A model generated the notes under the pieces. That model saw only the letters and a program-made list of their open reading frames with translations, was not told the origin of the DNA and did not search any database. From NCBI GenBank assembly GCA_041242255.1, contig JBESAV010000001.1, forward strand, positions 224,001 through 288,000: 64,000 bases of DNA, in the 5' to 3' direction. This stretch comes from Candidatus Altimarinota bacterium (GTDB lineage: Bacteria; Patescibacteriota; Gracilibacteria; UBA1369; GCA-2718715). Both the position numbers and the translations under genes were made by a program. Position 1 is the first letter of the stretch. Every line of letters begins with the position of its first letter. Below are positions 23,843 to 40,394 of the stretch, piece by piece.

Positions 23843-24283
23843 TTACCAGAATTTCCACCATCTTCTGTTTATATTCTCTTCTACCAGTTTCAGTTTGTTT
23901 TCAAGTGATATAACTTTATTTTGAAAAGTTTCGATTAATTTAAATAGATTTTCTTTCTCTTTAGCATGCTGTTCTACCAAAGTTTTCATCGTATCTGAGA
24001 ATTCAGTAAGCTGCTCTTGGAAACCTTCCATTTGTTTATTAGCAAGTTCAACTAATCCTTTGTTTTGACCAGGAACAATTCTTTGCGTAGTAGCTGCTCT
24101 AGCAACATTATACTCTTCACAAAAACTTTCTTTATCAATCAGGTAGTTAAAACCTTGTGGAGTTTTTTGTTTTTTGTAATCAATCTTGTTTGATTTTATC
24201 GCTCTGCGAATAGTCTGAATAGATTTATTGCTCAGTCTTGCAGCCTCTTTTATAGATATGTATTGATCTTGAACAGTGTTCAT
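23843..24283 (-). CDS. HTH (MerR/excisionase-like) plus coiled-coil protein with a C-terminal RRWWKFW amphipathic tail
   Basis: ISIKEAARLSNKSIQTIRRAIK HTH, heptad-rich C-terminal half and aromatic/basic terminal motif. Confidence 0.8.
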   Translation of the reverse strand: MNTVQDQYISIKEAARLSNKSIQTIRRAIKSNKIDYKKQKTPQGFNYLIDKESFCEEYNVARAATTQRIVPGQNKGLVELANKQMEGFQEQLTEFSDTMKTLVEQHAKEKENLFKLIETFQNKVISLENKLKLVEENINRRWWKFW

Positions 24284-25655: not shown

Positions 25656-28640
25656 CTATTTTTCTTCTGTTATTTCAATTTCCGCCTTGTCAGATTCCAT
25701 TACATCTTTGATTCCTTTCTTTTTGTTATAAAGATACCAAGCAGTAAACAGTAGTATTAGAGCTAGTATTACAAGAGCAGGAGTAAATCCAGTAGGAAGT
25801 ACAATATATTCAACTACAACTGGCACACTGTTCGCGTTAGCTTTCTCTGCAAGTATCGTTACTTTATGACGGCTAAATGGCTCAATCTCAGCCACAGTCT
25901 CGTCAGGTGCGTATAGAACAGTCTCATCAGAGTTTGAACCAGTTATCGCTGAAGATCCAAACATAATACTCTGCCATAATGCTTTATGGTTAGTATTCAA
26001 CTCACTCTTAACACGTGCGCTTAAGCCACCGTTGTTGATCGTATTCATACTTACAAATGTCCAATAGTTAACACCATCTTCATTTGATTCGTATAGTCTG
26101 TTCACATCTTTCTCAGCAAAGCTAATCAAATTAGCTTCAATTAGTCGAACGCTATTTGATATCGCTAGTCCGTAATCTGGTGATTGTGTAGGAGTAGCAA
26201 CATCCCTACCATATACCAAGATATCATCACTTAAAGGTAAGCTTGTTCTGTTTCTTAAAAGGAATTTACCTGCCTCATCTACAGCTGCTATACCAAGTGA
26301 GTATTCACTATCAGCAATTACTGCAATAACCTCAACATTTTCAATAGATGAATCAGATACTTTACCGGCAATAACTATATCATCACTTCCATATCTAGAT
26401 TGTCTGTCTCTAGGTAGGTTAAGTTGGATAGTCGGTGCATCTTCATCTTCTTCAATAAACTCTTCACTTGGGTCACAGTCATATGACTTAGACTCTTCGT
26501 ACTCAATTTCAGAGTTATAATCTCCACATTCTTCAACTTCTTGAGATTGGTTCACTCTACCACCAGATCCATTTCCAGTAGTTAGGCTACCATTAAAGCT
26601 GATCTCTGCCTCTTCCTCTTCAGGTTGCTCTTCAGCAGTTTCTTCTTCAACAGGCTCCTCAGTAACTTGTTGTTCTTGAGGTTGTTCTTCCTCAACAGGT
26701 TGTGGTTCAGGCTCAGGAGTAACTATAGGCTGTTCTTCAGCAGTTTCTTCTTCAACGGGCTCTACTGTAACTTGTTCTTCTTGAGTTTGCTCTTCCTCAA
26801 CAGGTTCCTCAGTAACTTCTTGTTCTTCAGCAGTTTCTTCTTCAACAGGCTCTACTTCAGGGGTAGTATTTGATGCGCCAAAAGGATTTGATCCACCGCT
26901 TCCACTTGAAGATGATCCACTTCCACCAGAGCTAGGTGCAGGTTCCTCTACAACACCTACCAGATCATTTGGTAAGTTAAAAGATAAGTGTGTGAAGTCA
27001 TCCATTGAGTTATTTGCAAGATCCTGGAATACATCCGCATTTGGTGTAAATGAATCTGCTACTATATCCACACCATCCTCATCTATAAGACCAGCTGTAA
27101 CAACGTACGTAAATCCAAGTTCGTTATCTAGCAAAGTAGTATTAAGAGGGAAGTCATAGTCGGCTGTTACTATCACGCCACCAATGTCTAGGTCGATAGT
27201 TGATGTTCCATCTAGGGTCGCTTTGTTAACATCTTCATTCAGCTCTAGAATAGCCTCAATAGTATCACCTTCTTGGTGATTAGTTTCAACGTCCGCACCT
27301 CTACCATTATTTATGAATGGCCTTATACCATCAATTACAATATCTTTTGCAAATGAAAGTGATCCTACAATACCAGGTTCAGGTAAGTCTGTTGGAATAA
27401 CGGGTTGTCCTGGTCCAGTTTCAAAATAATAATCACCAACAAAGTTATCAGGTGCAAAGTCTTGATCTTTAAATTCAGCAGTACCAAGGTCAATAGCATC
27501 AGTTCCCGTATAGGATAGGTCAGATGATGAATCTCCTTCTGTTACTGTATATAAAAATCTCAGGAATGTTACAGGGCTACCTGGTCCAGTTCCTGCGAAA
27601 TTTTCATCAGTTCCTGTTGCCAGGTTGATTCCTCCTCCAGTAAAGGTGTCATCAGGTAGATTTTCAAGTGTTGCTTGTGATGTACCTGAATCAAGTTGTA
27701 ATTCTAAAGTAGGGTCCACTGTAGGCAATGGATCAAAAAACTCATCTCTAGGTTGATTGTAGTAAAAAAGCGTATCCGAATCAGATAAATTAACATCAAT
27801 GTTAATTTGATCACCAATACCATAAGTTTGGTCGGCATCTAGAGATGTTACATCTTCAGTCTCTCCAATATTAGTATTAGTAATTCTATATGTCTCAGTG
27901 CTTGATAGACCTCCGTCATCAGTGGCTTGAAGCGTTATATCATAAAAATCCACTCCGCCTCTATCTTCATAGTCGTAATCAGGTTGGAAGATTGTTAACC
28001 TAAAGTAAGTTCCCCCAAAACCATCGTCATATTCTTCAATAGATGGAGTAAATAAACCTGAACAGTCATCTGTGTTATTGTCTACACAGCTTACTTCTGC
28101 CACAGTTAGTGTGTCTGTAGTATCATCAGCATCAGGATCAAATAACATAGTCGTATTTTCAGAATAGAAGACTTGCCCATTATCACCTTGTTCTTCAAAT
28201 CTTAGTAATACAAAGTTTGCAGGGTTTTCAAAAGTAGGTGGCTCTGGTACGTCAGTAATATTAATTGTTATATCCTGAAAGATTGTAACTCCACCTGCTT
28301 CTTGTGCCTCAACACCTAGGGTGTATGATGCTCCAGCGTTAATGAGGTCATCTCTAACCAGCAAGATATCTCCGTTTGTATCAACATCAAATCTGAAGTT
28401 ACCAGGGCTAGATCCATCTGCTCCAGTCTCAAAAAATGTTATGTCTCCTGGGTCAGCATCAGTTTCTAGTGTTCCAACCACGCCATTAGTGGCGTTTTCA
28501 GGAACATCTAATATCGTGTCTCCAGGTGTCCCATCAACATATATTTGTGTTGGCGAGTCAGCACTAGCAACCATAGAGAAAGACATTGTCATCACTACAG
28601 TCAATAAAAAGCTAGTGCATTTCCTCAATAATTTTTTCAT
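25656..28640 (-). CDS. Acidic surface protein: cadherin/Ig-like domains, Glu-rich repeat stalk, conserved C-terminal module and TM anchor
   Basis: Signal peptide, VPEN..VGTL and ITDVPEPP/DYDYE cadherin-like motifs, then LPTG-TM-KKK. Confidence 0.8.
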   Translation of the reverse strand: MKKLLRKCTSFLLTVVMTMSFSMVASADSPTQIYVDGTPGDTILDVPENATNGVVGTLETDADPGDITFFETGADGSSPGNFRFDVDTNGDILLVRDDLINAGASYTLGVEAQEAGGVTIFQDITINITDVPEPPTFENPANFVLLRFEEQGDNGQVFYSENTTMLFDPDADDTTDTLTVAEVSCVDNNTDDCSGLFTPSIEEYDDGFGGTYFRLTIFQPDYDYEDRGGVDFYDITLQATDDGGLSSTETYRITNTNIGETEDVTSLDADQTYGIGDQINIDVNLSDSDTLFYYNQPRDEFFDPLPTVDPTLELQLDSGTSQATLENLPDDTFTGGGINLATGTDENFAGTGPGSPVTFLRFLYTVTEGDSSSDLSYTGTDAIDLGTAEFKDQDFAPDNFVGDYYFETGPGQPVIPTDLPEPGIVGSLSFAKDIVIDGIRPFINNGRGADVETNHQEGDTIEAILELNEDVNKATLDGTSTIDLDIGGVIVTADYDFPLNTTLLDNELGFTYVVTAGLIDEDGVDIVADSFTPNADVFQDLANNSMDDFTHLSFNLPNDLVGVVEEPAPSSGGSGSSSSGSGGSNPFGASNTTPEVEPVEEETAEEQEVTEEPVEEEQTQEEQVTVEPVEEETAEEQPIVTPEPEPQPVEEEQPQEQQVTEEPVEEETAEEQPEEEEAEISFNGSLTTGNGSGGRVNQSQEVEECGDYNSEIEYEESKSYDCDPSEEFIEEDEDAPTIQLNLPRDRQSRYGSDDIVIAGKVSDSSIENVEVIAVIADSEYSLGIAAVDEAGKFLLRNRTSLPLSDDILVYGRDVATPTQSPDYGLAISNSVRLIEANLISFAEKDVNRLYESNEDGVNYWTFVSMNTINNGGLSARVKSELNTNHKALWQSIMFGSSAITGSNSDETVLYAPDETVAEIEPFSRHKVTILAEKANANSVPVVVEYIVLPTGFTPALVILALILLFTAWYLYNKKKGIKDVMESDKAEIEITEEK
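26625..26856 (-). repeat. Intragenic imperfect tandem repeats (EPVEEETAEEQ / VTEEPVEEE)
   Basis: TCTTCAGCAGTTTCTTCTTCAAC recurs three times, with related CCTCAACAGG units. Confidence 0.85.
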
Positions 28641-28706: not shown

Positions 28707-28783
28707 TGGTCGGGGTAGCAGGACTCGAACCTGCGACCTCACGCTCCCAAAGCGCGCGCGCTAGCCAACTGCGCCATACCCCG
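28707..28783 (-). tRNA. tRNA-Pro(TGG)
   Basis: Minus strand reads CGGGGTATGGCGCAG...TTTGGGA...GTTCGAGTC...ACCCCGACCA. Confidence 0.95.
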
Positions 28784-28805: not shown

Positions 28806-29288
28806 TTATATTATGTCTTCGTAATAATCAATATCTAATTTCTTCAATATGTAATCAGTTTCCTTATTCATAAGCTCTTCTTCTGTATCATTTTCATGTG
28901 TATATCCACAAATATGTAAAAAACCATGTGTGATTAGGAATAAGACTTCTTGTCTTAAATCTTTAGATTTTTTATTAGCCTTCGCTACAACGTAATCATC
29001 TGATAGATAAATCTCACCAAAAATCTTATTGTCCTGAATGTCAGTTTCGTACATTTCCCATGATAGTACGTCTGTTACCATGTCTTTTCCACGCCTTGCA
29101 GAGTTTATCCCTTTTATCTGTAAGTCTGTTATGAAGTAAATCTCCAGAATAGCGTTAGTTGTCACTCTTGATAGATGAGGCTTGTATTCTGATAGGTACT
29201 TGTTAAGTGTTGTTTCAAATTCTATTAGAGTAAACTGATCCAACAGAGTTTCTAACGACTGAGACTCAAAATGTAAGTTTAGTTTCAT
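28806..29288 (-). CDS. ybeY: rRNA maturation endoribonuclease YbeY
   Basis: TDVLSW, GEIYL and HGFLHICGYTH motifs. Confidence 0.92.
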   Translation of the reverse strand: MKLNLHFESQSLETLLDQFTLIEFETTLNKYLSEYKPHLSRVTTNAILEIYFITDLQIKGINSARRGKDMVTDVLSWEMYETDIQDNKIFGEIYLSDDYVVAKANKKSKDLRQEVLFLITHGFLHICGYTHENDTEEELMNKETDYILKKLDIDYYEDII

Positions 29289-29340: not shown

Positions 29341-29800
29341 GTTGTCAGACGTGTCTGCGCCATGTCTTTTGTTTTAAGTCTTGTTTTTAAGGCATTTTTA
29401 TTTTGTCTGTCAGACAAAGTCGCGTCTGGCATTGACATGGCGCAGTCAATATAAGACAATAGCCTTAGTTTAAAGACATATGTCATGACAAGTCTCTACA
29501 GTATAGACAGGCAGAACGCTGCACGGATCCTTGGTGTGTCAGTCAGGACAGTCGACAGGTATATATCATCTGGTAAGATCAGAAAGGTCAAAAATCAAGG
29601 TAGGACATGGTTGTCTAATGAAGACATTAAGTCTATGGTTTCTGACAACGTTCAGACAGGTGCTGACAATGTCGCGTCAGAGTTCTTTTCGCAGACAGAT
29701 AAAGCACAAAGACAGTCAGATCATGTCTCAAATAACAATAACTCAGATAGCTTTTCTCAAGAGTCAGCATACAGAAGGCAAGAACCTCCAAGAGACAGTC
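29341..29800. repeat. Dense array of short GAC(A)/(T)GTC motifs with nested inverted repeats
   Basis: About 40 GAC/GTC triplets in 460 bp by hand count. Inverted repeats at 29355-66/29434-45, 29402-18, 29431-50 and 29481-90. Confidence 0.75.
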
Positions 29801-30159
29801 AGATGAATTACAAATCATTGTATGAAGAAGCAAAAGACGAGTTAGAAGAAAAAAATAAAAAACTGCAACAAGCCACTTACAGAATCGGACAACTAGAGTC
29901 ACAAGTGAAATCAATGATTCCTCAAATTGAATATGAAAAAACGCAAAAGTTGTTAAGTCAGAAGGTACAAAATGCAGAAATTATGCTTAGTCAAGAAGTT
30001 CAAAAAAGAGAAACTGCAACAAAAAAACTACTTGGAGAGCTTAAAATAAAAGAAAGTGAACTTGAAAGTGAAAAGTTCAACAAAGCTATTTTTGCTATTC
30101 TTCTGTTTTTAATAACCTTCACTTTAATTTTTGTTATCTTTCTTAATTACTTAAGTTAA
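29485..30159 (+). CDS. HTH (excisionase/HTH_17-like) plus linker, coiled coil and C-terminal TM helix
   Basis: AARILGVSVRTVDRYISSGKI HTH, a long coiled coil (YKSLYEE..ATYRIGQLE) and a hydrophobic C-terminus AIFAILLFLITFTLIFVIFL. Confidence 0.85.
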   Translation: MTSLYSIDRQNAARILGVSVRTVDRYISSGKIRKVKNQGRTWLSNEDIKSMVSDNVQTGADNVASEFFSQTDKAQRQSDHVSNNNNSDSFSQESAYRRQEPPRDSQMNYKSLYEEAKDELEEKNKKLQQATYRIGQLESQVKSMIPQIEYEKTQKLLSQKVQNAEIMLSQEVQKRETATKKLLGELKIKESELESEKFNKAIFAILLFLITFTLIFVIFLNYLS

Positions 30160-30338: not shown

Positions 30339-33300
30339 ATGTTTGCCCGCATATCAAAACCCAAAAACAAGCTGCAGAAGGTCCAGCTCAAAGCTTTAAT
30401 AGCACTGATATTTAGTTTTTGCCTACTTTCAGTAATTGACCTTCAAAGTAATAACTACGATGATTTATTAATATTCAAGTCAGAAGTAGCTTTTGCCGAT
30501 GTAAACGTAACTTCCTGTGAGCAGTTTCAAGGTACTGCTGCAGCAGGGACAAATCTTATCGATAACCCAGGTGAGACTTTTTTACTACAAAACGATATAG
30601 ATTGTGCTGGTGCTTCAATATCACCAATATTCCCAAGCAACAACAAGTTCACTGGTATTTTCGAAGGTAATGGTTTCACATTATCAAACTTCATTGTTCC
30701 ATCTTCATCAAGAGCCTCTTTATTTGGATATACAAGTAGTTCTACAATTCAAAATCTAACAATTAGAGACGCAGGTGTTACCTGTGATACAGGTGGTTAT
30801 TGTGCGGTCTTAATCGGGGATGATACTGAGTCAACAATTGATAACATAACCTTAATCAATACAACTTTAACCCAAAATGGAGGTAACGACCGTATGGGTT
30901 CTGTAATCGGTTCAGGTTTAGGTTCTCAGGTATCAAACGTAACTGTTGATGATTTTCAACTGACTTGTGATCAACTTTTTAGTGGATCCTGTCAGTATCT
31001 AGGAGGGGCTCTAGGGTTCATCAGTGACAATGCCACAGTTCAAGCATTTATTCAAAACGTAAGCGTAAACAACGCTACTATTTATGGACACGATAACATT
31101 GGTGGGGTTATAGGTTACATAAGTGAATCAAATGCTGATAATCTTACTGCTACAAACATCACCCTAGGGGGGCTAACAAATGTAGGTGGTGTAGTAGGTC
31201 AGCTTTTAGGTACAAATGGGTTAGAAGCTTATTTAGACAACTCTAGCGCTACAAACGTTACTCATGATCCTCAGGCTTACCTAACAGCAACTGGAAATAG
31301 TTCTACTAGTGTAACAGCTGTAGGAGGGTTGATAGGTACTGCCTCAAACTATACAAGTGTAAACTGTGGAGGAGAAACCACTAATTTCTACAACTCATCT
31401 TTGGCTAGTACAGTTAAGGTCGGAGGATTGATAGGTGATGCTAACTTTTTAGCTGCTACAGCCTCTGATGCTGTTAACTACACAGTAGAAAATTGTACAA
31501 CTTCTGGTTCTATCGAAGGGCGTACCTATCTTGGTGGAGTTATCGGTGAAGCTGCTGAAGGTAGATACAACAACCTTAACTCTACAGTAAACATTAAATT
31601 CACAGGTTCATCTCCTAATATTGGTGGTGGTATAATGGGGTGGTTTGATTTTTTAAACCCAGTAGAACCTGTTGGTTTAAGTAATTGTAGTTATACAGGT
31701 CAGATTAGTCTGGGTGACTATACAGGTACTACACCAAGTTACCTTGGAGGTATAGCTGGAGACTTAGATCACGCTTCTATAGATAATTGTACAGTTGATG
31801 TTTCCATACTTTCGCCAGAATCCATTTACATAGGTGGAGCAGTTGGAGCAGCTGGTGGGTCAACTACTGACTTAAATAATGTTATTTCAAATATTACTGC
31901 TAATGTTGAATTACAAGGTGAGCAATATGTTGGTGGTATAGTCGGACAGGCTACTGGTTACCTTCTCGATAATAATTCTGCTTCAGGAACGATAGATGGT
32001 AACCCAAATGATCTAACTAGATATTTCGGAGGAATTGTCGGACAATTAAATGGTACCTCATCTGGAGTATATGCAAGAGTTACAAATAGTAATTCCTCAG
32101 TCCTAATTAGAAAAGTAGTACTTTATGCTGGTGGTATAGTCGGTTTTGGTACCTATTCTCCTATTCTACAGTCATACAACACTGGTGATATCGAAGTTTT
32201 CCAAGGTTACGCCGGAGGTATAGCTGGGTCATTACAAAATGGTAATGCAACTTTCCCAATTGAAGAAGTTTACAATACCGGTGATATATATGGGCAGTTG
32301 GACTACATTGGTGGTTTAATTGGTAATATGACTGCTGCTATTCCTATCAATAACTCTTATTCAAGGGGTAACGTAACAGGTGGTGAAAGAATAGGGGGGT
32401 TGATTGGTAATGGTTCAAATGCTCTGATTACAAATTCTTATTCAGCAGGGAGAGTAATAGGGGCTGACAATTTCGGTGGTTTTGTTGGAGCTGGTAATGC
32501 TTCTACACTATCAACAGATTCGTATTGGGACATTGAAACTTCAAAGCAAATAAATTCTTACGTTGGTACTCCAAAAACAACGGAAGAAATGTACACACCA
32601 GCTACCTATTCAACTTGGGATTCAGATACAATCTGGAATATATGTACCGAAAATTATCCAGTTCTACAGTCAGTAGGGGAATCCTGTCCAGTACTAGAGC
32701 CTGTAGTTTTTGAAGTTAACACCAATCAAGATACTTCAGACACAAACCTTGGAGATAACTTATGTGAGGATAGTAACGGGAAATGTTCATTAAGGGCAGC
32801 CATGGAGGAGTTTGATAGTTTAAACCTAGCTGGAAGAGAAAACAGAATTATATTTAACTTACCAAGTGATCAACTAACTATCCAACTAGATTCGTCATTG
32901 CCTACAGTCAACAATCTCCAGATGAACATTAATGCAACCACTCAGTCGGGGTATTTAGGAGCACCAATTGTTGAGATCGATGCCTCTTTAGTTACAGGGT
33001 CTGATCCAATATTCGATTATTCAAACGCAGACTCATCTATTTTACAAGGTTTATCAATATTTGGTTCAACACACGGTGCTAGTGCGATGATTTCTGTATT
33101 AAATTCGGACGACATAATCTTCAAAAATAACTACTTTGGTTTAGATTCACTAGGGCAAGATGGGGGTACAACTTTACCGCTAGCTTTAGAAATAGACAAT
33201 TCTGATCGAACTCTAGTTAAAGATAATATTTTTGCACATCCAGTAGATATTATTGATTCAAACAATATTGAGGCTTCAGACAATATTTTTGAGTTAATAA

Positions 33301-36300
33301 ATACAATCTCAAATGACTTCGGTCTACAATTCAGAGATGGAGCCAATGCGTTTATATTTAGAAATGATTTTTATGACATTGCTCGGGCGATTGTCATTCG
33401 AGATGACTCAGCGTCTTTGCCAGTTATTGAAAACAACATCAAAGAAAATGAAGGTACAAACATAACCTTGATGATTGATCTTATTGATGATTCAAATGCC
33501 GACACAATTGGTAAAAATACAAATGACTTAGACGATGCCGATGATGGACCAAATAAGCTTATCAATTCCCCAGAGTTAAGTCAGGTAAGTTATGACAATG
33601 CTACTAGAACTTTAACAATAAACGGTGATTTCAATTCAGAAGATGGAAATTACAGATTTGATTTCTATACCAGTGATGGTAATGACGAATCAAGAAAATA
33701 CATCAATTTCTTTATCGACTCAGTCTTAAACAACAACGTTACTTTCACTAATCAAACCTTACTAATCCCAAGAAGGGATGTGGTTCCAAGTTATATATCA
33801 GCTACAGCTCAAGATACTGATGGTAACACTTCTGAGCACAGTCAGCTTCTAGCTGTAGATTCTATCTTAATTACATCATGTGATCAGTTGGCCGGAGGTA
33901 ATCCTGCTGCTGTCGCAAATCATATTGAAGACGACTACTCAGCTTTTTATAGACTGGCAAACGATATTGATTGTTCTGCTTACACAGGTGGGACTACTTT
34001 TGATCCAATCGGCTCCAACACTTCTGCAGAATACTTCAAAGGAGTTCTAGTAGGTGACGGTTATACTATTTCAAATCTTGAAATTTCAGATGCTGGAACC
34101 TACATCGGTCTATTCGCAAGAACTGAGACAGCAATTATACAAGATGTAAATTTTGAAAATGTAAGTATAAACTGTACCACTAATTCTTCAAACTACTGTG
34201 GTTTAATTACAGGTTATGCCGACCAAACATCAGTAGAAGACATAAATGTCACACAAGGAATAGCACCAGGTGCAAACCCAGTAGGTTTAACAGGTCTTGG
34301 AACATACACAGGTGGTCTTGTTGGTTATACAAGAGCAAGTAATTTCTTAAATATTAATTCTGATCTAGATGTGATCGGTAACACTGCTTCAGATTCATAC
34401 TTTGGAGGTATTGCAGGTTACACATCATATTACAAGCCAACCAACAGAGGTTATATTCCAAATGAATTCCAAAATGTGCATGTAACAGGTGACGTAACTG
34501 GATTTTCATACGTTGGTGGTATAACTGGTAAAGGTGAAGATATAGATATGTTAGATGTTTCATACTCTGGAACAGTTACAGGTTACAGTAGTTATGTCGG
34601 AGGTATATCAGGTTCAGTAAATAGTAGTTCTTTAAGTACTGTTTTAGCTAAGGCTAAGAATGCAACTGTAAATGCAAATATAGTTTCTGGTCCTGGTGGA
34701 AGCGGAAACAGTTACGGTGGAGCCTTCGGTATAGTAAATAATGGTATTTTTGAAAACATTATGGTGACTGGTACGGTTGACGTGGAAGCTCAGACAAGAG
34801 TCGGTGGAGCTTTCGGTAGTTTAAATGGTAATTCTGCCTATGCTGTAAACGATACAATGAGTGCCTCACATCCTTTTTACGCCAAAAATATTACAGCCAA
34901 TGTTGATATTTCAAACTCAAACGGAGATGTAGGTGGTATTGCAGGTTACACAGGATATATGAACTTATCCAACATTAACTACAGCGGTACAATTTCTCAT
35001 GATTCCCCAGGTGCAAATCATTCAAATATTGCTGGTCTCATAGGTAATGGTACGTATGTTGTAGTAGATGGTGGTTCAGCGACCAGTCCAAATCCAATCA
35101 GCTATGCGACAAATAACTCCGGGGGAGCCTTCGGTAATATACCAAGGTTAGATATTGATGGTATCTCTTCAGATATTTCCCTTCCAAACATCAAATCAAA
35201 TGGTGGTGGTTTAGTCGGTTTAGCTACCTACTTAAATATTTCAAATTCATACGCTACAGGAGATATAGGTGATTCAGCTCTTCAGTCTAGTACAACACGT
35301 TTAGGAGGTCTAGTCGGAGGCTGTACTTCTGCTTTCTGTTATATTACAGATTCATATTCTACAGGTACAGTAGATGCAGACGGTTCCCGAAATGGTGGTA
35401 TTGCAGGAGATTTATCTGCCCCAGATATAGTTATGACAAATGTTTATTCAACTAGTGATATAACAGCTACAGGATTATCTGTAGGTGGTTTAGTCGGTTA
35501 TCTTTCATCAAGCGGTGGAACTGCTACCCTTACCGACACATATGCCACAGGTACTGTAGTCAGTACAATTCAAAATAACATAGGTGCTCTTATAGGGCAG
35601 CATGCAGCTGGTCAGTTAGATATCACAGAGTCTTACACCTCAGGAAATATATCAACCGGTGACTCAAATGGAGTCTCTCATTGTGGAGGTTTAGTTGGTC
35701 TATCTGCAGGAACTTTAAATGTTACAAGGTCATATTCATACGGTTCTTATAGTTGTCAGTCCCTAGGTTCTACTGGAAGTCCACATGGTTTCGGTGGTTT
35801 AGTAGGGGAGATGGCTACAGGTAGCATTCTGGATTCATATTCTCATGCAAATATTACAGCCAATTACGACAGTGGTTTCACAAGTGATGATAGTTATCTA
35901 GGTGGACTAGTTGGTAACATTACAGGTGCTACTACAGTAACAGATTCATATTCTACCGGTTCAATCACTTCCCTTTACTCTCCACCAGATCCAGCCGATG
36001 ATCCTGTTATTGGTGGATTAGTTGGTAACGCTCCATCCACTACATTTACAGATTCTTTCTGGGATACTCAAACTTCAGGAATTCTAACCTCAGCCGGAGG
36101 GACCGGTAAGTTAACGTCTGAAATGCAAGATCAAGACACCTTTACTACAGGGGGGCCTGATTGGGACTTTACGACTACTTGGGAGATGTGTGCCGGTGGT
36201 GGATACCCAACTCATCAATGGATGAATTATTGTCCACTCGACAACCCATATACTTTCGAAGTAAATACAACTAATGATACAGAAGACTCAGAACTTGGTG

Positions 36301-39300
36301 ACAGGACATGTCTCGACATCGCAGGGAACTGTTCATTAAGGGCTGCATTACAAGAAATGGCATTCATGCAAGCCAACGAACAAGAGTCTGTCAGTTATGA
36401 AATAAACTTTAACATCCCAGGTGTTGGACCGCACAATATTCAGCTGGATTCAACATTAGGTTACTTAGATACATTGAGTGGATTAACAAACCTCACAATC
36501 AATGGTGAGTCTGAACCAGACTTTACTTCTTCTCCAGTTGTTTATATTGATTCAACCGAGGTCAATTCTCCTGGTTCAAGTATCTTAAGCCTTGATGAGA
36601 CAACTAATACTGTCATCCAGGGGCTTGGGTTCATAAACTTCAACGAATCTTCAGATTCAATCCTAAATATAGCAAATTCAAACAATATAACTTTGGATAA
36701 TCTTCGCCTTGGTATCAATAGCTCAGGTCAAGACGACGGAGTCACAAGCGGAAGTGCAAGATCTATTTTATTCTCAAATACGAGTGGGTCTACCTTACAA
36801 GATTCTAGCCTTTCTAGATCGATCAGTATCGAGTCAGCTTCGGCAAACAATACTATTCAAAATAATAGTCTAAATCTAACTAATTCTACACAACCAGAAG
36901 GAGTTTATGTCTTAAATTCAAGCAATAACACTGTTTTCTCTAACACCTTCAGCTCTGTAAGTAAAGCAATGGTAGTAAACGAGGAGACAGGACAGTCAGC
37001 CATAAATAACACTCTTTCACAAAATACAGCTCAAGGAGTCACTACAAGAGTAATCGAGCTTCAAGTTGATGGCTCACCAGCAGCTAATACAAATGACATT
37101 GCTCAAGATCTTGATAACGGAGCTAACACTCTTCTAAATTTCCCTGTTATTTCAGACTCAACCTACAACGGTGTAGCAGACACCCTAAACATACAAGGTA
37201 CAGTAGAGACCGCTAATGCGGCTGACTACTACATTGAGTTTTATGAGTCAGATGGTGATACAGACGAAGCTCTTTCTTATCTAGGCGCTTCAGCTCCATT
37301 CACAGTATCAGGTAATCTATATAACTTTGATGTAACTCTTAATGGAATAACTTCAATTCCTTTAAATGTAACCTCAATCTTAATCGACTCATCAGGTAAT
37401 ACTTCACAACACAGTGCTGATATTAGCCTAAATGAGCCTCCAACCGATATTCAGATATCAAATGACACAGTTGATGAAACACCAGAAGGTGGTCCTTTCG
37501 ACACTGCAACAGTTGGAGTACTTACAACAACTGATGCTGATGTAGATGCTACTCATACCTACGAAGTCATTTCTGTTGACGGTGATACTGAATCAACAAT
37601 CTTCTCAATAGGAGGTCTAGGTGATTCGCTTATCCAGAACGTACCTTTTGATTATGAAACTAAGACTTCATACAGTGTTCTAATCAGAACAACTGACAAC
37701 AACGGAGTTTCATACCAAGAGTCTCTGACTATTCAGGTCAATGACTTAAATGATGTCTCTCCTGATCTTACTCCTGAAAACTTCAGCGTAAACGAAGACA
37801 ATGCTGATCCTCAAGCTACATTAACCGTAACAGACCCAGACACAGTCGGGACAGTCTCACTGACAATAACCGGTGGTGCCGATCAAGATGACTTTGAGTT
37901 AACCGATAATACATTAAGCTTCAAAGCAGCATCCTTGCCTTTAGATTTCGAAACAAAGTCATCTTATACCGTACAAGTTACTGCTTCTGACGGAGTTAAC
38001 ACTGACGATACGGAATCATTCACCTTCAATATTCAAGATGTTAACGAAGCTCCAACTGTCGTTAGTCCAGTTGGTGACTTCGCAGTTGATCAAGGTTCTC
38101 CTATCGCAGCAGTAGACGCTTCATCAATATTCGATGATCAAGACGCAGGTGCAAATGGTACTCTTACTTACACAGCTACACTTGCTGATACAAATCCGTT
38201 ACCAGATTGGTTGTCCTTTGATGGTACGACCTTAACAGGTGCTCCAGCCAACCAAGACGTAGGGATAACATCAATAAGGATTACAGCTCAGGACACAGGT
38301 GGATTATCCATAAGCGATACCTTTGATATAACAGTCAATAACATTAATGACGCACCTGTTGTAGAGGATCAAAACTTAGGTTCCATCCCTGAAAACACAG
38401 CTGTTTCGACAGTAGTTGGTACAGTCACAGCACTAGACCCAGATACTCCATACGGTGATACAATTTCATTCTCTATCACAGGTGGAAACACAGATTTAAA
38501 TGCTAACGAAACTTTCCCGTTCTCGATCGATTCAAGTTCAGGTGTTATTACGGTCGCTGATCCTGACGATCTAGATTTCGAAACTCAAGCAACATTCTTA
38601 CTAACAGTTACTGTTACTGATGATGGTGCAGGAAATCTATCTGATTCAGCAACTATTACCATAACCATAACTGATGCTGATGACGAAGCTCCAGTGTTTA
38701 CAACACCAGCTACATTGTCTATTCAAGAAAATGAAACTTCTATAGCAACTATTGAGTCAACAGACGTAGATACTATTGGGACAGTTCCGACATACTCAAT
38801 AACTGGTGGGCCAGATCAAGATCTGTTTACTCTAAACGAAGCCACAAACGAGTTAAGCTTTATCACAGCTCCGGATTTTGAAATCCCAACCGATGCAAAT
38901 TCCGACAGTATTTACCAAGTTGAAATAACAGCTGAAGATATAAGCGAAAATCAATCAACTCAACTCTTCTCAATCCAGGTGTCAGACCTTGAAGAGACAA
39001 CTCCTTCAAGCTCCGGTTCAGCAGGTGGAACAGGTTCAACTTCATCTCCTTTCGGAGGTTCAGATTCAGGTGATGGATCTGATTCAGGGGTGGACCAGTC
39101 TGATGACTCACAGGAAGAGTCGACTGAAGACGCTACTGACGAGCAAACTCCAGAAGAAATAGACGAAGATACGCCTGAAGACGAAACCGTAGAGGGTGAT
39201 CAAGAAGAGTCAGAAGATTCCTCTCCAGACAATGTCCAAGAGGCAGTTGATGAAGGTCAGGACGAGTCTGCCGATGACTCTAGCAGTCAAACTTCAGACA

Positions 39301-40394
39301 GTAGTTCTTCTGATGATTCAAACCAAGATCAAGATGATGAAAACGATCAAGAGACACCTGAAGACGACAATGAGTCTGACCAAGATTCAGACCAAGGCGA
39401 CGATGATGACAGTGATGATGAATCAAATCAACAGCAGCAACAACAAAACAATTCATCAGGAGGTGGATCAAGTTCCTCAGGTGGAGGAGGTGGAAGACCA
39501 GCTTACGTTAGGCCTCCAGTTCAAAGGTTCTCATGTGATGACATTGATTCAATCAATTTCGATGAGTTTGACTTTGCTGAGCTAGACTGTGATCCATTAC
39601 TAGCAAATCTTCCTGAGCCAGAATCCGATGAATCTAGAATTTCCCTAAATCTTGCTCAATCAAGCCCTACCAGCTTCCCAGATGAAAACTTCTACATCAC
39701 AGGTAAGGTCTTCAATGTTGAAGATGTTTCAGAGGTAGAGGTGTACGCTGAGGTAAATGAAGGCAATAACATTATCCTCGGTCAGGCAGAAGTAGATGAT
39801 TTCGGTAACTTCTCATTACTAAATAGAACTCCAGTTCCAAAAGATACTGACTTCCAGATTAAGGCTAGAGCAATAGTACAAAACCAACAAGTTGAATCAG
39901 ACGAGTACTCTGTTCGATTATCAGGTGATCAACTCCCTCCAATCCCAACAGAGCTTATAACCTTTACCAATAAATCAGCAGAAAGCTTGATTCAAAACGA
40001 AGACGGTTACTTCACCTTTGTAAATACTGAAGAGTTACTAAATGGCTTAGAGGTTAGAGTCGAGTCAAAATTCAGAACTAAACATAACGTTTACTGGAAT
40101 AGTATACTTATAGGATCAACAGCAATCACTGGTTCCAACTCAAATCAAACCACAATCTACGCTCCAGAGTCAGTTGTAGAAAGCATTGAGCCTTTCAGCA
40201 GGCATAAGGTAACTATCGTAGCAGAAAGCTTAGATAATCCTGATCAAAAAGGTACACCATTAGTTATAAACTATATATACGTACCTACTGGCGCTTACTA
40301 CACAGCTTACATACTTATAGCTCTTGTTCTCTTCATATCATTAGCTAGAAGATTGAAGAAGAAAAAAGACAAACCCGAGTTAGATCAAATCTAA
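30339..40394 (+). CDS. Giant 3351-aa surface adhesin: 2x (GLUG beta-helix, CSLREA, beta-helix), cadherin and putative-Ig repeats, acidic stalk, C-terminal module and TM
   Basis: Many GGLVG/GGIAG GLUG motifs, two CSLRAA motifs, DYETK/DFET and D-x-N-x-P cadherin motifs, LPDWLSFD putative Ig, then VPTG-TM-RRLKKKK. Confidence 0.9.
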   Translation: MFARISKPKNKLQKVQLKALIALIFSFCLLSVIDLQSNNYDDLLIFKSEVAFADVNVTSCEQFQGTAAAGTNLIDNPGETFLLQNDIDCAGASISPIFPSNNKFTGIFEGNGFTLSNFIVPSSSRASLFGYTSSSTIQNLTIRDAGVTCDTGGYCAVLIGDDTESTIDNITLINTTLTQNGGNDRMGSVIGSGLGSQVSNVTVDDFQLTCDQLFSGSCQYLGGALGFISDNATVQAFIQNVSVNNATIYGHDNIGGVIGYISESNADNLTATNITLGGLTNVGGVVGQLLGTNGLEAYLDNSSATNVTHDPQAYLTATGNSSTSVTAVGGLIGTASNYTSVNCGGETTNFYNSSLASTVKVGGLIGDANFLAATASDAVNYTVENCTTSGSIEGRTYLGGVIGEAAEGRYNNLNSTVNIKFTGSSPNIGGGIMGWFDFLNPVEPVGLSNCSYTGQISLGDYTGTTPSYLGGIAGDLDHASIDNCTVDVSILSPESIYIGGAVGAAGGSTTDLNNVISNITANVELQGEQYVGGIVGQATGYLLDNNSASGTIDGNPNDLTRYFGGIVGQLNGTSSGVYARVTNSNSSVLIRKVVLYAGGIVGFGTYSPILQSYNTGDIEVFQGYAGGIAGSLQNGNATFPIEEVYNTGDIYGQLDYIGGLIGNMTAAIPINNSYSRGNVTGGERIGGLIGNGSNALITNSYSAGRVIGADNFGGFVGAGNASTLSTDSYWDIETSKQINSYVGTPKTTEEMYTPATYSTWDSDTIWNICTENYPVLQSVGESCPVLEPVVFEVNTNQDTSDTNLGDNLCEDSNGKCSLRAAMEEFDSLNLAGRENRIIFNLPSDQLTIQLDSSLPTVNNLQMNINATTQSGYLGAPIVEIDASLVTGSDPIFDYSNADSSILQGLSIFGSTHGASAMISVLNSDDIIFKNNYFGLDSLGQDGGTTLPLALEIDNSDRTLVKDNIFAHPVDIIDSNNIEASDNIFELINTISNDFGLQFRDGANAFIFRNDFYDIARAIVIRDDSASLPVIENNIKENEGTNITLMIDLIDDSNADTIGKNTNDLDDADDGPNKLINSPELSQVSYDNATRTLTINGDFNSEDGNYRFDFYTSDGNDESRKYINFFIDSVLNNNVTFTNQTLLIPRRDVVPSYISATAQDTDGNTSEHSQLLAVDSILITSCDQLAGGNPAAVANHIEDDYSAFYRLANDIDCSAYTGGTTFDPIGSNTSAEYFKGVLVGDGYTISNLEISDAGTYIGLFARTETAIIQDVNFENVSINCTTNSSNYCGLITGYADQTSVEDINVTQGIAPGANPVGLTGLGTYTGGLVGYTRASNFLNINSDLDVIGNTASDSYFGGIAGYTSYYKPTNRGYIPNEFQNVHVTGDVTGFSYVGGITGKGEDIDMLDVSYSGTVTGYSSYVGGISGSVNSSSLSTVLAKAKNATVNANIVSGPGGSGNSYGGAFGIVNNGIFENIMVTGTVDVEAQTRVGGAFGSLNGNSAYAVNDTMSASHPFYAKNITANVDISNSNGDVGGIAGYTGYMNLSNINYSGTISHDSPGANHSNIAGLIGNGTYVVVDGGSATSPNPISYATNNSGGAFGNIPRLDIDGISSDISLPNIKSNGGGLVGLATYLNISNSYATGDIGDSALQSSTTRLGGLVGGCTSAFCYITDSYSTGTVDADGSRNGGIAGDLSAPDIVMTNVYSTSDITATGLSVGGLVGYLSSSGGTATLTDTYATGTVVSTIQNNIGALIGQHAAGQLDITESYTSGNISTGDSNGVSHCGGLVGLSAGTLNVTRSYSYGSYSCQSLGSTGSPHGFGGLVGEMATGSILDSYSHANITANYDSGFTSDDSYLGGLVGNITGATTVTDSYSTGSITSLYSPPDPADDPVIGGLVGNAPSTTFTDSFWDTQTSGILTSAGGTGKLTSEMQDQDTFTTGGPDWDFTTTWEMCAGGGYPTHQWMNYCPLDNPYTFEVNTTNDTEDSELGDRTCLDIAGNCSLRAALQEMAFMQANEQESVSYEINFNIPGVGPHNIQLDSTLGYLDTLSGLTNLTINGESEPDFTSSPVVYIDSTEVNSPGSSILSLDETTNTVIQGLGFINFNESSDSILNIANSNNITLDNLRLGINSSGQDDGVTSGSARSILFSNTSGSTLQDSSLSRSISIESASANNTIQNNSLNLTNSTQPEGVYVLNSSNNTVFSNTFSSVSKAMVVNEETGQSAINNTLSQNTAQGVTTRVIELQVDGSPAANTNDIAQDLDNGANTLLNFPVISDSTYNGVADTLNIQGTVETANAADYYIEFYESDGDTDEALSYLGASAPFTVSGNLYNFDVTLNGITSIPLNVTSILIDSSGNTSQHSADISLNEPPTDIQISNDTVDETPEGGPFDTATVGVLTTTDADVDATHTYEVISVDGDTESTIFSIGGLGDSLIQNVPFDYETKTSYSVLIRTTDNNGVSYQESLTIQVNDLNDVSPDLTPENFSVNEDNADPQATLTVTDPDTVGTVSLTITGGADQDDFELTDNTLSFKAASLPLDFETKSSYTVQVTASDGVNTDDTESFTFNIQDVNEAPTVVSPVGDFAVDQGSPIAAVDASSIFDDQDAGANGTLTYTATLADTNPLPDWLSFDGTTLTGAPANQDVGITSIRITAQDTGGLSISDTFDITVNNINDAPVVEDQNLGSIPENTAVSTVVGTVTALDPDTPYGDTISFSITGGNTDLNANETFPFSIDSSSGVITVADPDDLDFETQATFLLTVTVTDDGAGNLSDSATITITITDADDEAPVFTTPATLSIQENETSIATIESTDVDTIGTVPTYSITGGPDQDLFTLNEATNELSFITAPDFEIPTDANSDSIYQVEITAEDISENQSTQLFSIQVSDLEETTPSSSGSAGGTGSTSSPFGGSDSGDGSDSGVDQSDDSQEESTEDATDEQTPEEIDEDTPEDETVEGDQEESEDSSPDNVQEAVDEGQDESADDSSSQTSDSSSSDDSNQDQDDENDQETPEDDNESDQDSDQGDDDDSDDESNQQQQQQNNSSGGGSSSSGGGGGRPAYVRPPVQRFSCDDIDSINFDEFDFAELDCDPLLANLPEPESDESRISLNLAQSSPTSFPDENFYITGKVFNVEDVSEVEVYAEVNEGNNIILGQAEVDDFGNFSLLNRTPVPKDTDFQIKARAIVQNQQVESDEYSVRLSGDQLPPIPTELITFTNKSAESLIQNEDGYFTFVNTEELLNGLEVRVESKFRTKHNVYWNSILIGSTAITGSNSNQTTIYAPESVVESIEPFSRHKVTIVAESLDNPDQKGTPLVINYIYVPTGAYYTAYILIALVLFISLARRLKKKKDKPELDQI

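Follow-up and report, generated by a model that had tools for sequence, protein, structure and literature searches.

A dense GACA/TGTC array written into the gene of a predicted tail-anchored winged-helix protein: a candidate origin-proximal DNA-membrane tether in a Patescibacteria genome

Tethering of a chromosomal site to the membrane by a dedicated DNA-binding protein has been described in Firmicutes, and here we set the known systems beside a locus in a 64-kb stretch of Candidatus Altimarinota DNA (the window; positions 224,001-288,000 of the single-contig genome G000, which has 1,000,477 bp and a GC content of 36.4%). At this locus, a gene for a 224-residue protein with a winged helix-turn-helix (wHTH) carries around its 5' half a dense array of short GACA/TGTC motifs. 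RocS of Streptococcus pneumoniae is presented as a wHTH protein with a coiled coil, a DUF536 domain and an amphipathic helix, and is proposed to act as a DNA-membrane tether (PMC11500499). RicO of Staphylococcus aureus is reported to bind nine ricS sites around oriC and to anchor origins to the membrane; the same preprint groups RicO, RocS and RacA as one Firmicutes family and leaves the distribution of this family beyond Firmicutes open (bioRxiv 10.64898/2026.03.06.710092). The initial annotation of the locus had not recognised such a system as described; the principle is known, as RocS and RicO are already presented as DNA-membrane tethers in these sources (PMC11500499; bioRxiv 10.64898/2026.03.06.710092).

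Three further proteins are relevant for comparison. RacA is described as a protein that coats DNA and binds clustered origin-proximal sites with a TGAC half-site, whose TpG is read by one conserved arginine (PMC4914108). The Par protein of the staphylococcal plasmid pSK1, a single-protein partition system, combines a wHTH with a coiled coil and binds sequence repeats on the plasmid that serve as its centromere (PMC11500499). BldC is reported to form head-to-tail cooperative multimers on variable numbers of direct repeats with a unit of 9 bp (PMC5859096). The protein studied here shows a domain order similar to that of RicO and RocS, which consist of an N-terminal MerR-type wHTH, a coiled coil and a C-terminal membrane element, with a long disordered linker in addition.

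The 460 bp at 29341-29800 (GC content 41.5%) hold 40 GAC/GTC triplets, as the initial annotation had estimated by hand, and 26 GACA/TGTC tetramers. Sliding 460-bp segments give a mean of 8.8 GAC/GTC triplets (standard deviation, sd, 4.0) across the window, with the maximum of 40 at the array. The same scan of the whole genome yields a mean of 7.16 (sd 3.0), a maximum of 40 at the array locus and a runner-up of 29, and for GACA/TGTC a mean of 2.0 (sd 1.57), a maximum of 26 at the same locus and a runner-up of 14. The array density lies about 11 sd over the genome mean and forms the unique maximum of G000, so that the unique peak named in the initial annotation as support for its claim was indeed recovered. 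The runner-up GACA/TGTC peak (14 motifs) at genome position ~333,100-333,560 is a coding tandem repeat with a period of ~96 bp, which is unrelated to the array and encodes an Asp/Met/Pro/Gly-rich peptide on the - strand. A second genomic array or regulon is ruled out on this ground. The main features of the locus are the following:

29344..29802, both orientations: GACA/TGTC (GAC/GTC) array, the genome-wide density maximum
29344..29484, no strand: upstream sub-array, located in the 196-bp intergenic region that separates the divergent ybeY from the HTH gene
29432..29460, + strand: promoter-like site TTGACA-17 nt-GACAAT, with 10/12 consensus matches
29485..30159, + strand: coding sequence of 224 amino acids for a predicted tail-anchored winged-HTH/long-helix protein (Pfam, AlphaFold2, hydropathy, homologues)
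29497..29655, + strand: winged HTH (residues 5-57) of the Pfam HTH_17/excisionase type (Pfam, AlphaFold2, Foldseek)
29662..29799, + strand: disordered linker (residues 60-105) by predicted local distance difference test (pLDDT), whose coding DNA carries the second sub-array
29800..30084, + strand: long alpha-helix (residues 106-200), presumed coiled coil, without motif enrichment (AlphaFold2)
30088..30144, + strand: C-terminal hydrophobic segment (residues 202-220), predicted tail anchor (Kyte-Doolittle)

Fourteen of the 40 triplets are non-coding: they precede the start codon, within the 196-bp intergenic region that the gene shares with the divergent ybeY. In G000, TGTC prevails up to position 29409 and GACA from 29413 on, around the palindrome TTTGTCTG-T-CAGACAAA at 29402-29418. 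Both hexamers of the promoter-like site contain the GACA motif; by consensus match, five such sites were found compared to 3.7±2.0 in shuffles, which is not significant alone. The runs at 29413, 29424, 29434, 29445 and 29455 and at 29644, 29655, 29665 and 29676 are spaced by 10-11 bp, as first pointed out in the initial annotation, and the phasing of the G000 array as a whole is moderate, with a periodogram power of 4.8 at 10.0 bp and 10 in-phase pairs versus 5.6 expected in a jitter test (p=0.036). Two other descriptions of the array were considered and rejected. Tandem Repeats Finder detects no tandem array at the locus, its three short repeats (scores 30-35, 2-4 copies) being distinct from the GAC/GTC array, which rules out a tandem or mobile repeat. 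An RNA-level element is ruled out by the presence of both motif orientations, by the position of the array partly upstream of the promoter-like site and by an Rfam scan, which finds no RNA family at the locus besides tRNA.

The array extends into the coding sequence, and it does so through codon choice. When the amino-acid sequence was re-encoded 5000 times with genome codon usage, the 25 GAC/GTC triplets observed in codons 1-106 (9.4±2.3 expected) were reached in 0/5000 synonymous simulations, which sets aside amino-acid content, named in the initial annotation as an explanation that could overturn its claim. The array fades at the start of the long helix, since codons 107-224 hold 5 triplets compared to 4.65 expected and thus show no enrichment; both the continuation into the gene and the fading at the presumed coiled coil are as the initial annotation had read them. 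The codons of residues 1-50 hold 13 triplets (4.05 expected) and those of the linker hold 12 (5.4 expected), a number reached in 5/5000 simulations. Asp is encoded by GAC in 6/9 cases here versus 24% genome-wide (GAT is used for 76% in G000), and Val by GTC in 5/8 cases versus 7% genome-wide. Even the recognition helix is spelled in this manner, its codons V18-R25 being GTG TCA GTC AGG ACA GTC GAC AGG, exactly as quoted at the outset, and the 12-mer AGACAGTCAGAT, found at 29710 and again at 29793, is translated in two different frames, as R-Q-S-D and as (R)D-S-Q-M. Selection acts on the array at the level of DNA and not through the protein sequence.

Orthologous loci display the same overlay. 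The codon of the helix residue Asp24 is GAC in 56/87 orthologous loci, the Asp-Arg pair spells GACA in 51/87, and the codon before Asp24 is GTA or CTA in 46/87, which gives TAGACA. The linker is not conserved as a protein among orthologues: its peptides (such as VDMSIDKSVD and RQADRQPDRQ) vary between lineages yet spell DNA of the TAGACATGTCTA or GACAGACAG type, and the linker-coded words common to differing lineages are TAGACA/GACAG.

Gene and array are widely conserved in the order to which G000 belongs. A full-length homologue is present in 58/61 genomes of this order, which cover 19 families, mostly as a single copy. An evenly spread sample of 301 genomes from the phylum yields full-length matches only within the order (6/6, G000 included) and in 2/11 other genomes of the class; elsewhere in this sample the HTH part matches alone. 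Under a fixed criterion (10 or more motifs per 460 bp, with a density no less than 2.5 times that of the flanks), an array is found at the 5' end of the gene in 37/45 scored genomes (five further loci were left unscored), and 55/65 further loci, found by a peptide pattern, pass a similar test. The initial annotation had allowed that orthologues might lack an array altogether, and this is not the general picture: the array is conserved among families with only 25-43% protein identity. Across 30 oriented loci, GACA/TGTC motifs form two clusters, at -200..0 and at +150..+300, of which the second corresponds to the linker and the first has the largest counts. The most enriched words at orthologous loci are GACA and AGACA, with TAGACA in most families, and the logo derived from 88 non-identical loci (1781 motifs) reads w-r-T-A-G-A-C-A. 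The initial annotation had also asked whether the motifs are lineage-specific and co-vary with the recognition helix. They are not, as the same GACA core (mostly TAGACA) recurs across ~19 families and the helix motif S-x-R-T-x-D-R-Y is invariant.

The phasing is more apparent across loci than at a single one. Spacings between motifs of the same orientation peak at 11 (149), 22 (101) and 33 (68) bp in the 88 loci, where inverted motif pairs are also present at offsets of -8, -6 and +4/5. A per-locus jitter test gives p<0.05 in 37/78 loci, with 726 in-phase pairs compared to 388 expected. A search of the 61 genomes for three phased GACA motifs yielded totals no higher than a control with the reversed pattern; among the 150 matches listed, ~45 (a rough hand count) fall at the HTH locus, in 16 genomes, and the remaining ones are mostly coding D/T/S repeats. 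The public sequencing runs in which the locus occurs are marine metagenomes, with no RNA run among those listed, and the organism is uncultivated and known from such metagenomes only.

The domain architecture proposed initially, namely HTH, linker, long helix and C-terminal membrane segment, is recovered in agreement by Pfam, AlphaFold2 and hydropathy. Residues 11-43 match Pfam PF12728 (HTH_17) with an E-value of 1.1e-7 and 32.4 bits (cut-off 27). The TIGR01764 'excise' model matches 22 of 29 family members, the G000 protein itself scoring 23.1 and thus under the cut-off of 28.8, and the Xer-activation-factor model matches weakly in 5/29. An AlphaFold2 model built on 29 orthologues (mean pLDDT 83.9) shows a wHTH with the succession E5-8, H9-16, H20-29, E34-37, E40-44 and H45-57 at a pLDDT of 94-97, a disordered stretch at residues 67-99 with a pLDDT below 50, and one uninterrupted helix at residues 106-223 with a pLDDT of 93-98. 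The helix residues S19-x-R21-T22-x-D24-R25-Y26 as well as R9 and E196 are invariant among orthologues.

Structural comparison places the wHTH among DNA-binding domains of several families. The best Foldseek match is the Xis of mycobacteriophage Pukovnik (4j2n), together with RacA bound to DNA (5i44), GlnR, BldC bound to DNA (6ama), MerR-family proteins and pSK1 Par (8csh), with target template-modelling (TM) scores of 0.58-0.76; for BldC the target TM-score is 0.75 with a root-mean-square deviation of 1.3 Å, and for pSK1 Par it is 0.72. Sequence searches of the PDB, one with the profile and one with residues 1-60, returned the Pukovnik Xis as the one match, which is marginal (E 0.012-0.015), and did not recover RacA, BldC or Par. 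At the other end of the protein, the hydrophobic segment reaches a 19-residue Kyte-Doolittle mean of 3.16 and is followed by four residues, and in 30/30 orthologues examined it ends 1-6 residues from the C terminus. The sequence of this segment predicts a transmembrane tail, distinct from both an amphipathic helix and a DivIVA-binding end, and with 1-6 residues beyond the membrane there is no extracytoplasmic sensor domain as in regulators of the ToxR/CadC type.

The locus lies in the vicinity of the probable replication origin. After removal of a large constant offset, the detrended cumulative GC skew of G000 reaches its lowest value at 201,955 and its highest at 776,469. A stretch of ~970 bp without a long open reading frame at 204.7-205.7 kb (region start 204,715) lies directly upstream of dnaN (205,685-206,815; identified by Pfam) and contains four DnaA-box-like 9-mers in one orientation; judged by these sequence features, it is likely the best oriC candidate in G000. 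The array, at genome position 253.4 kb, is situated ~47 kb to the right of dnaN and this candidate, and dnaA lies apart from it at 828 kb. No cluster of DnaA boxes was found at the array, where two single boxes occur within 3 kb, and the idea that the array itself is oriC is unsupported, given the better candidate upstream of dnaN at a distance of ~48 kb. In 10/13 scorable genomes a single contig contains both the HTH gene and dnaN, at distances of 37-134 kb, and in four single-contig genomes the distance amounts to 4.8, 6.9, 7.9 and 9.1% of genome length; two more genomes, in which contig names were not equated, stand outside these 13. The ParB N-terminal domain ParB_N (PF02195) has 0 matches in G000, a genome that is 98.5% complete, and was not found in 53/61 relatives of the order. 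The other 8/61 genomes have nine matches in open frames of 155-498 residues, most of them longer than a typical chromosomal ParB.

G000 shows an extreme strand disparity along its whole length. The + strand contains ~94,600 more C than G, corresponding to a skew of ~-0.26, and values per 100 kb range from -0.14 to -0.37, so that the cumulative skew falls monotonically and never turns. The 250-270 kb region, with a GC skew near zero, is unlike the rest of the genome. GC skew at third codon positions, with the + strand as reference, is ~-0.2 to -0.75 for genes of both orientations, a low-count bin at 250 kb excepted; its magnitude drops sharply at ~200-250 kb and then rises around the circle. 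Monotone skew of this kind has been reported for the Microgenomates order UBA1400, and in the same source Peregrinibacteria are said to behave normally (PMC7143001). Unidirectional or strand-displacement-like replication would fit the skew of G000, and so would a bidirectional signal superposed on a constant offset. The complete relative G010 shows a weaker version of this pattern (near 0 versus ~-0.1), which is too weak and noisy to set its orthologue at a sharp switch; its dnaN (1,361 kb) lies where the skew first changes.

We interpret the locus as a tether of the kind represented by RacA, RocS, RicO and pSK1 Par, which would connect an origin-proximal site to the membrane and would also repress its own promoter. 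By analogy with these proteins we infer that the protein binds the array, and we consider this reading about as likely to be right as wrong. The wHTH of the Xis/MerR type would bind the ~460-bp array of wrTAGACA-like motifs around the 5' half of its own gene, and many protomers would load side by side on motifs that are about one helical turn apart, as is the case for Xis and BldC. The long helix might then pair or bundle protomers, the 45-residue disordered linker might supply reach, and the C-terminal transmembrane segment would anchor the complex in the cytoplasmic membrane. The outcome would be one dense nucleoprotein patch that ties an origin-proximal site, ~47 kb from dnaN, to the membrane. 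Autorepression is to be expected under such binding because the promoter-like hexamers are themselves motifs and lie inside the array.

A further-reaching proposal, which we put forward tentatively and would sooner doubt than accept, is that of a one-gene kinetochore: ParB-poor bacteria of the candidate phyla radiation (CPR), of the Peregrinibacteria type, may segregate or position their chromosome with a tail-anchored Xis/MerR-like protein that polymerises on an origin-proximal centromere. This centromere would be written into the promoter, the recognition-helix codons and the linker codons of its own gene, the amino acids of the linker would for the most part follow from the DNA motif (dual coding), and the gene would be passed on together with its centromere as a single unit. 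The initial annotation had combined a centromere and a tether in one claim, and this claim stands in part: the proximity to dnaN and the oriC candidate, the general lack of ParB and the fold similar to Xis, RacA, BldC and Par speak for it, and the existence of array-less orthologues speaks against it.

Several observations weigh against the tether interpretation. Eight of the 45 scored genomes keep the protein without an array (4/4 in family f6, 2/3 scored in f9 and 2/2 scored in f19), and both genomes of the same class outside the order that have the gene lack an array. The protein family can thus dispense with the array, as some of its full-length members do; either the function of the family is independent of the cis array or other sites are used in these genomes. 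Within the order, an array accompanies 3/8 loci with Thr at helix residue 20 compared to 34/37 non-Thr loci, cases that are phylogenetically non-independent, and both outgroup orthologues of the class combine Thr at this position with the lack of an array. A co-variation of array loss with Thr20 is suggested by these sequences and is not clean. As to position, the HTH gene and dnaN lie on different contigs in 3/13 scorable genomes, multi-contig assemblies reveal short distances only, and the relatives are non-independent. The proximity to dnaN may be plain conserved synteny, because the array-less genome G054 also keeps the gene near dnaN, and a distance of 47-134 kb is near the origin but not at the origin. 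Sequence membership in the RacA/RocS group fails as well: the NCBIfam RacA model NF009649 matches weakly in 2/29 members (best E 0.0014), and DUF536, the signature of RocS and Par, has no match in the protein at E up to 1. The Foldseek E-values for the wHTH are weak (0.003-0.1), owing to the small size of the domain. Finally, a single dense cluster of 4-6-bp motifs is unlike the dispersed 14-18-bp sites of RacA and RicO.

The same evidence can be read in terms of regulation. The protein could be a membrane-sequestered transcription factor and the array an oversized operator that controls its own promoter and the divergent one on the ybeY side, without any positioning of DNA; the array would then merely set a sharp threshold for the level of the protein. 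The location of TTGACA and GACAAT inside the array, which fills the intergenic region common to the divergent genes, agrees with this, as do the array-less orthologues, which demonstrate that the protein can function with no array in cis, and centromere-binding proteins as well as Xis/BldC-type proteins are commonly repressors (for BldC see PMC5859096). Yet an array of 26-40 motifs that spans 460 bp and extends into the coding sequence for 300 bp goes far beyond the needs of repression, and the lack of a second genomic cluster argues against a regulon. The divergent or upstream neighbour is also inconstant (YbeY in 32/88 loci, a SpoU methylase in 36/88, an FG-GAP/SLH protein in 53/88), and the 1-6 residues past the membrane segment leave no sensor domain. 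Regulation as the whole explanation seems unlikely to us; autoregulation as such is compatible with tethering, which in our interpretation includes autorepression.

It is less probable still that the array serves another factor, be it as a replication or cohesion element, as a loading site of a nucleoid protein, or as a recombination site with the HTH protein as directionality factor. The origin-proximal position would suit such a role, and so would the excisionase-type HTH (TIGR01764 in 22/29, Xer-activation-factor weakly in 5/29), as excisionases bind phased direct repeats. Against it, gene and array are strictly co-located in ~80% of genomes, the motif is written into the recognition-helix codons of the protein itself, and no conserved recombinase family appears among the 12 most widespread neighbour clusters of the 88 loci, nine of which were Pfam-scanned. 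A single-copy core gene of the order whose product has a membrane anchor and a long helix is unlike directionality factors, and the two single DnaA boxes near the array, which form no cluster, lend little to a replication element. One further explanation is refuted, namely that the array arose by chance, from base composition or as a by-product of the Q/S/D/T/R-rich linker. The codons of D, Q, S, T and R can indeed spell GAC, CAG and ACA, but the unique maximum ~11 sd over the genome mean, its absence from all 5000 synonymous re-encodings, the 14 non-coding triplets and the retention of one DNA motif at 25-43% protein identity, with differing linker peptides, leave no room for this explanation.

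The immediate neighbourhood contains two further annotated genes:

28806..29288, - strand: ybeY (endoribonuclease), the divergent neighbour (Pfam YbeY, E 7.9e-28)
28707..28783, - strand: tRNA-Pro (TGG), context (Rfam scan)

Neighbouring genes are conserved only in part. Downstream of the HTH gene, at +900..+2000 relative to its start, 48/88 loci have a convergent DUF881 gene and 39/88 have glutamate racemase, an arrangement that is lacking in G000. DUF881 genes are part of division and cell-wall clusters of Firmicutes and Actinobacteria, and a link of this neighbourhood to cell division is possible. In G000, two giant predicted surface proteins flank the locus, at 25656-28640 (- strand, 994 residues) and at 30339-40394 (+ strand, 3351 residues); both contain acidic stretches of low complexity and C-terminal membrane segments, and their C-terminal regions resemble each other. 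HTH_17 is matched once more, below threshold (21.4 bits, E 3.4e-4), at 24164-24262 on the - strand, within a 150-residue open frame ~5 kb upstream of the locus. In another class of the phylum, the genome G298 (C1:474,801-475,400) encodes a 200-residue protein in which an HTH_17-like helix (VSIRTIQRY) at the N-terminal end is followed by a long middle part of low complexity and a C-terminal hydrophobic segment, and there is no GACA array at that site. As this sequence suggests, tail-anchored HTH proteins may occur more widely among the Patescibacteria.

For chromosome organisation and segregation in very small, ParB-poor CPR bacteria, the locus offers a compact candidate in the form of one 224-residue protein and one 460-bp DNA fragment from organisms that are unculturable. 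It also illustrates with unusual clarity how a cis-element can overlie a coding sequence, where one motif is spelled in different reading frames, and this overlay bears on the interpretation of disordered linkers and synonymous sites. A search of the literature, with most subscription journals outside its reach, revealed no paper that describes a CPR counterpart of the protein or the array. The candidate bears directly on the reach of RacA/RocS/RicO-type anchors outside Firmicutes, the question that the RicO preprint leaves open (bioRxiv 10.64898/2026.03.06.710092).

Compared with the described systems, the locus combines familiar parts in a different manner. Beyond the similar domain order, it resembles RicO in that the candidate array is origin-proximal here too. 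Unlike RicO and RocS, it has a predicted integral transmembrane tail in place of an amphipathic helix and no DUF536; its HTH is by sequence nearer to the Xis/HTH_17 type, and its host belongs to the CPR, whereas surveys of that family have been limited to Firmicutes. In place of the nine dispersed 18-bp ricS sites that RicO finds over ~700 kb, 26-40 short motifs are clustered in and at its own gene. With RacA and its ram sites in Bacillus subtilis it shares a MerR-like wHTH and, presumably, a coiled coil, the RacA-DNA structure being among its top Foldseek matches; in contrast, RacA reaches the pole via DivIVA without a membrane segment, and its ram sites, GC-rich palindromes of 14 bp, are scattered around the origin.

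The DNA-binding domain of pSK1 Par on centromere DNA is likewise a structural match (8csh, TM-score 0.72), and the pSK1 repeats adjoin the par gene; an extension of these repeats into coding sequence is not reported. Par is, unlike the chromosomal protein here, part of a plasmid system with DUF536 and a MinD-like amphipathic helix. The direct repeats about one helical turn apart (peaks at 11, 22 and 33 bp in 88 loci) recall BldC and Xis; BldC and lambda-type Xis are small, soluble and devoid of a coiled coil or membrane anchor, and act at promoters or att sites and not on one 460-bp array. Centromeres in or beside the gene of their binder are known from parS inside parB/spo0J and from plasmid R1, where the 11-bp iterons of parC flank the parMR promoter and binding is autoregulatory. 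These systems use unrelated DNA-binding folds (ParB or ribbon-helix-helix) and need a partner NTPase, and ParB_N was not found in G000. Altogether, the principle of a DNA-membrane tether is already described in Firmicutes for RocS and RicO, and what is new at this locus is the predicted anchoring by a membrane tail, the placement of one dense array within the gene of the protein itself and a host from the CPR.

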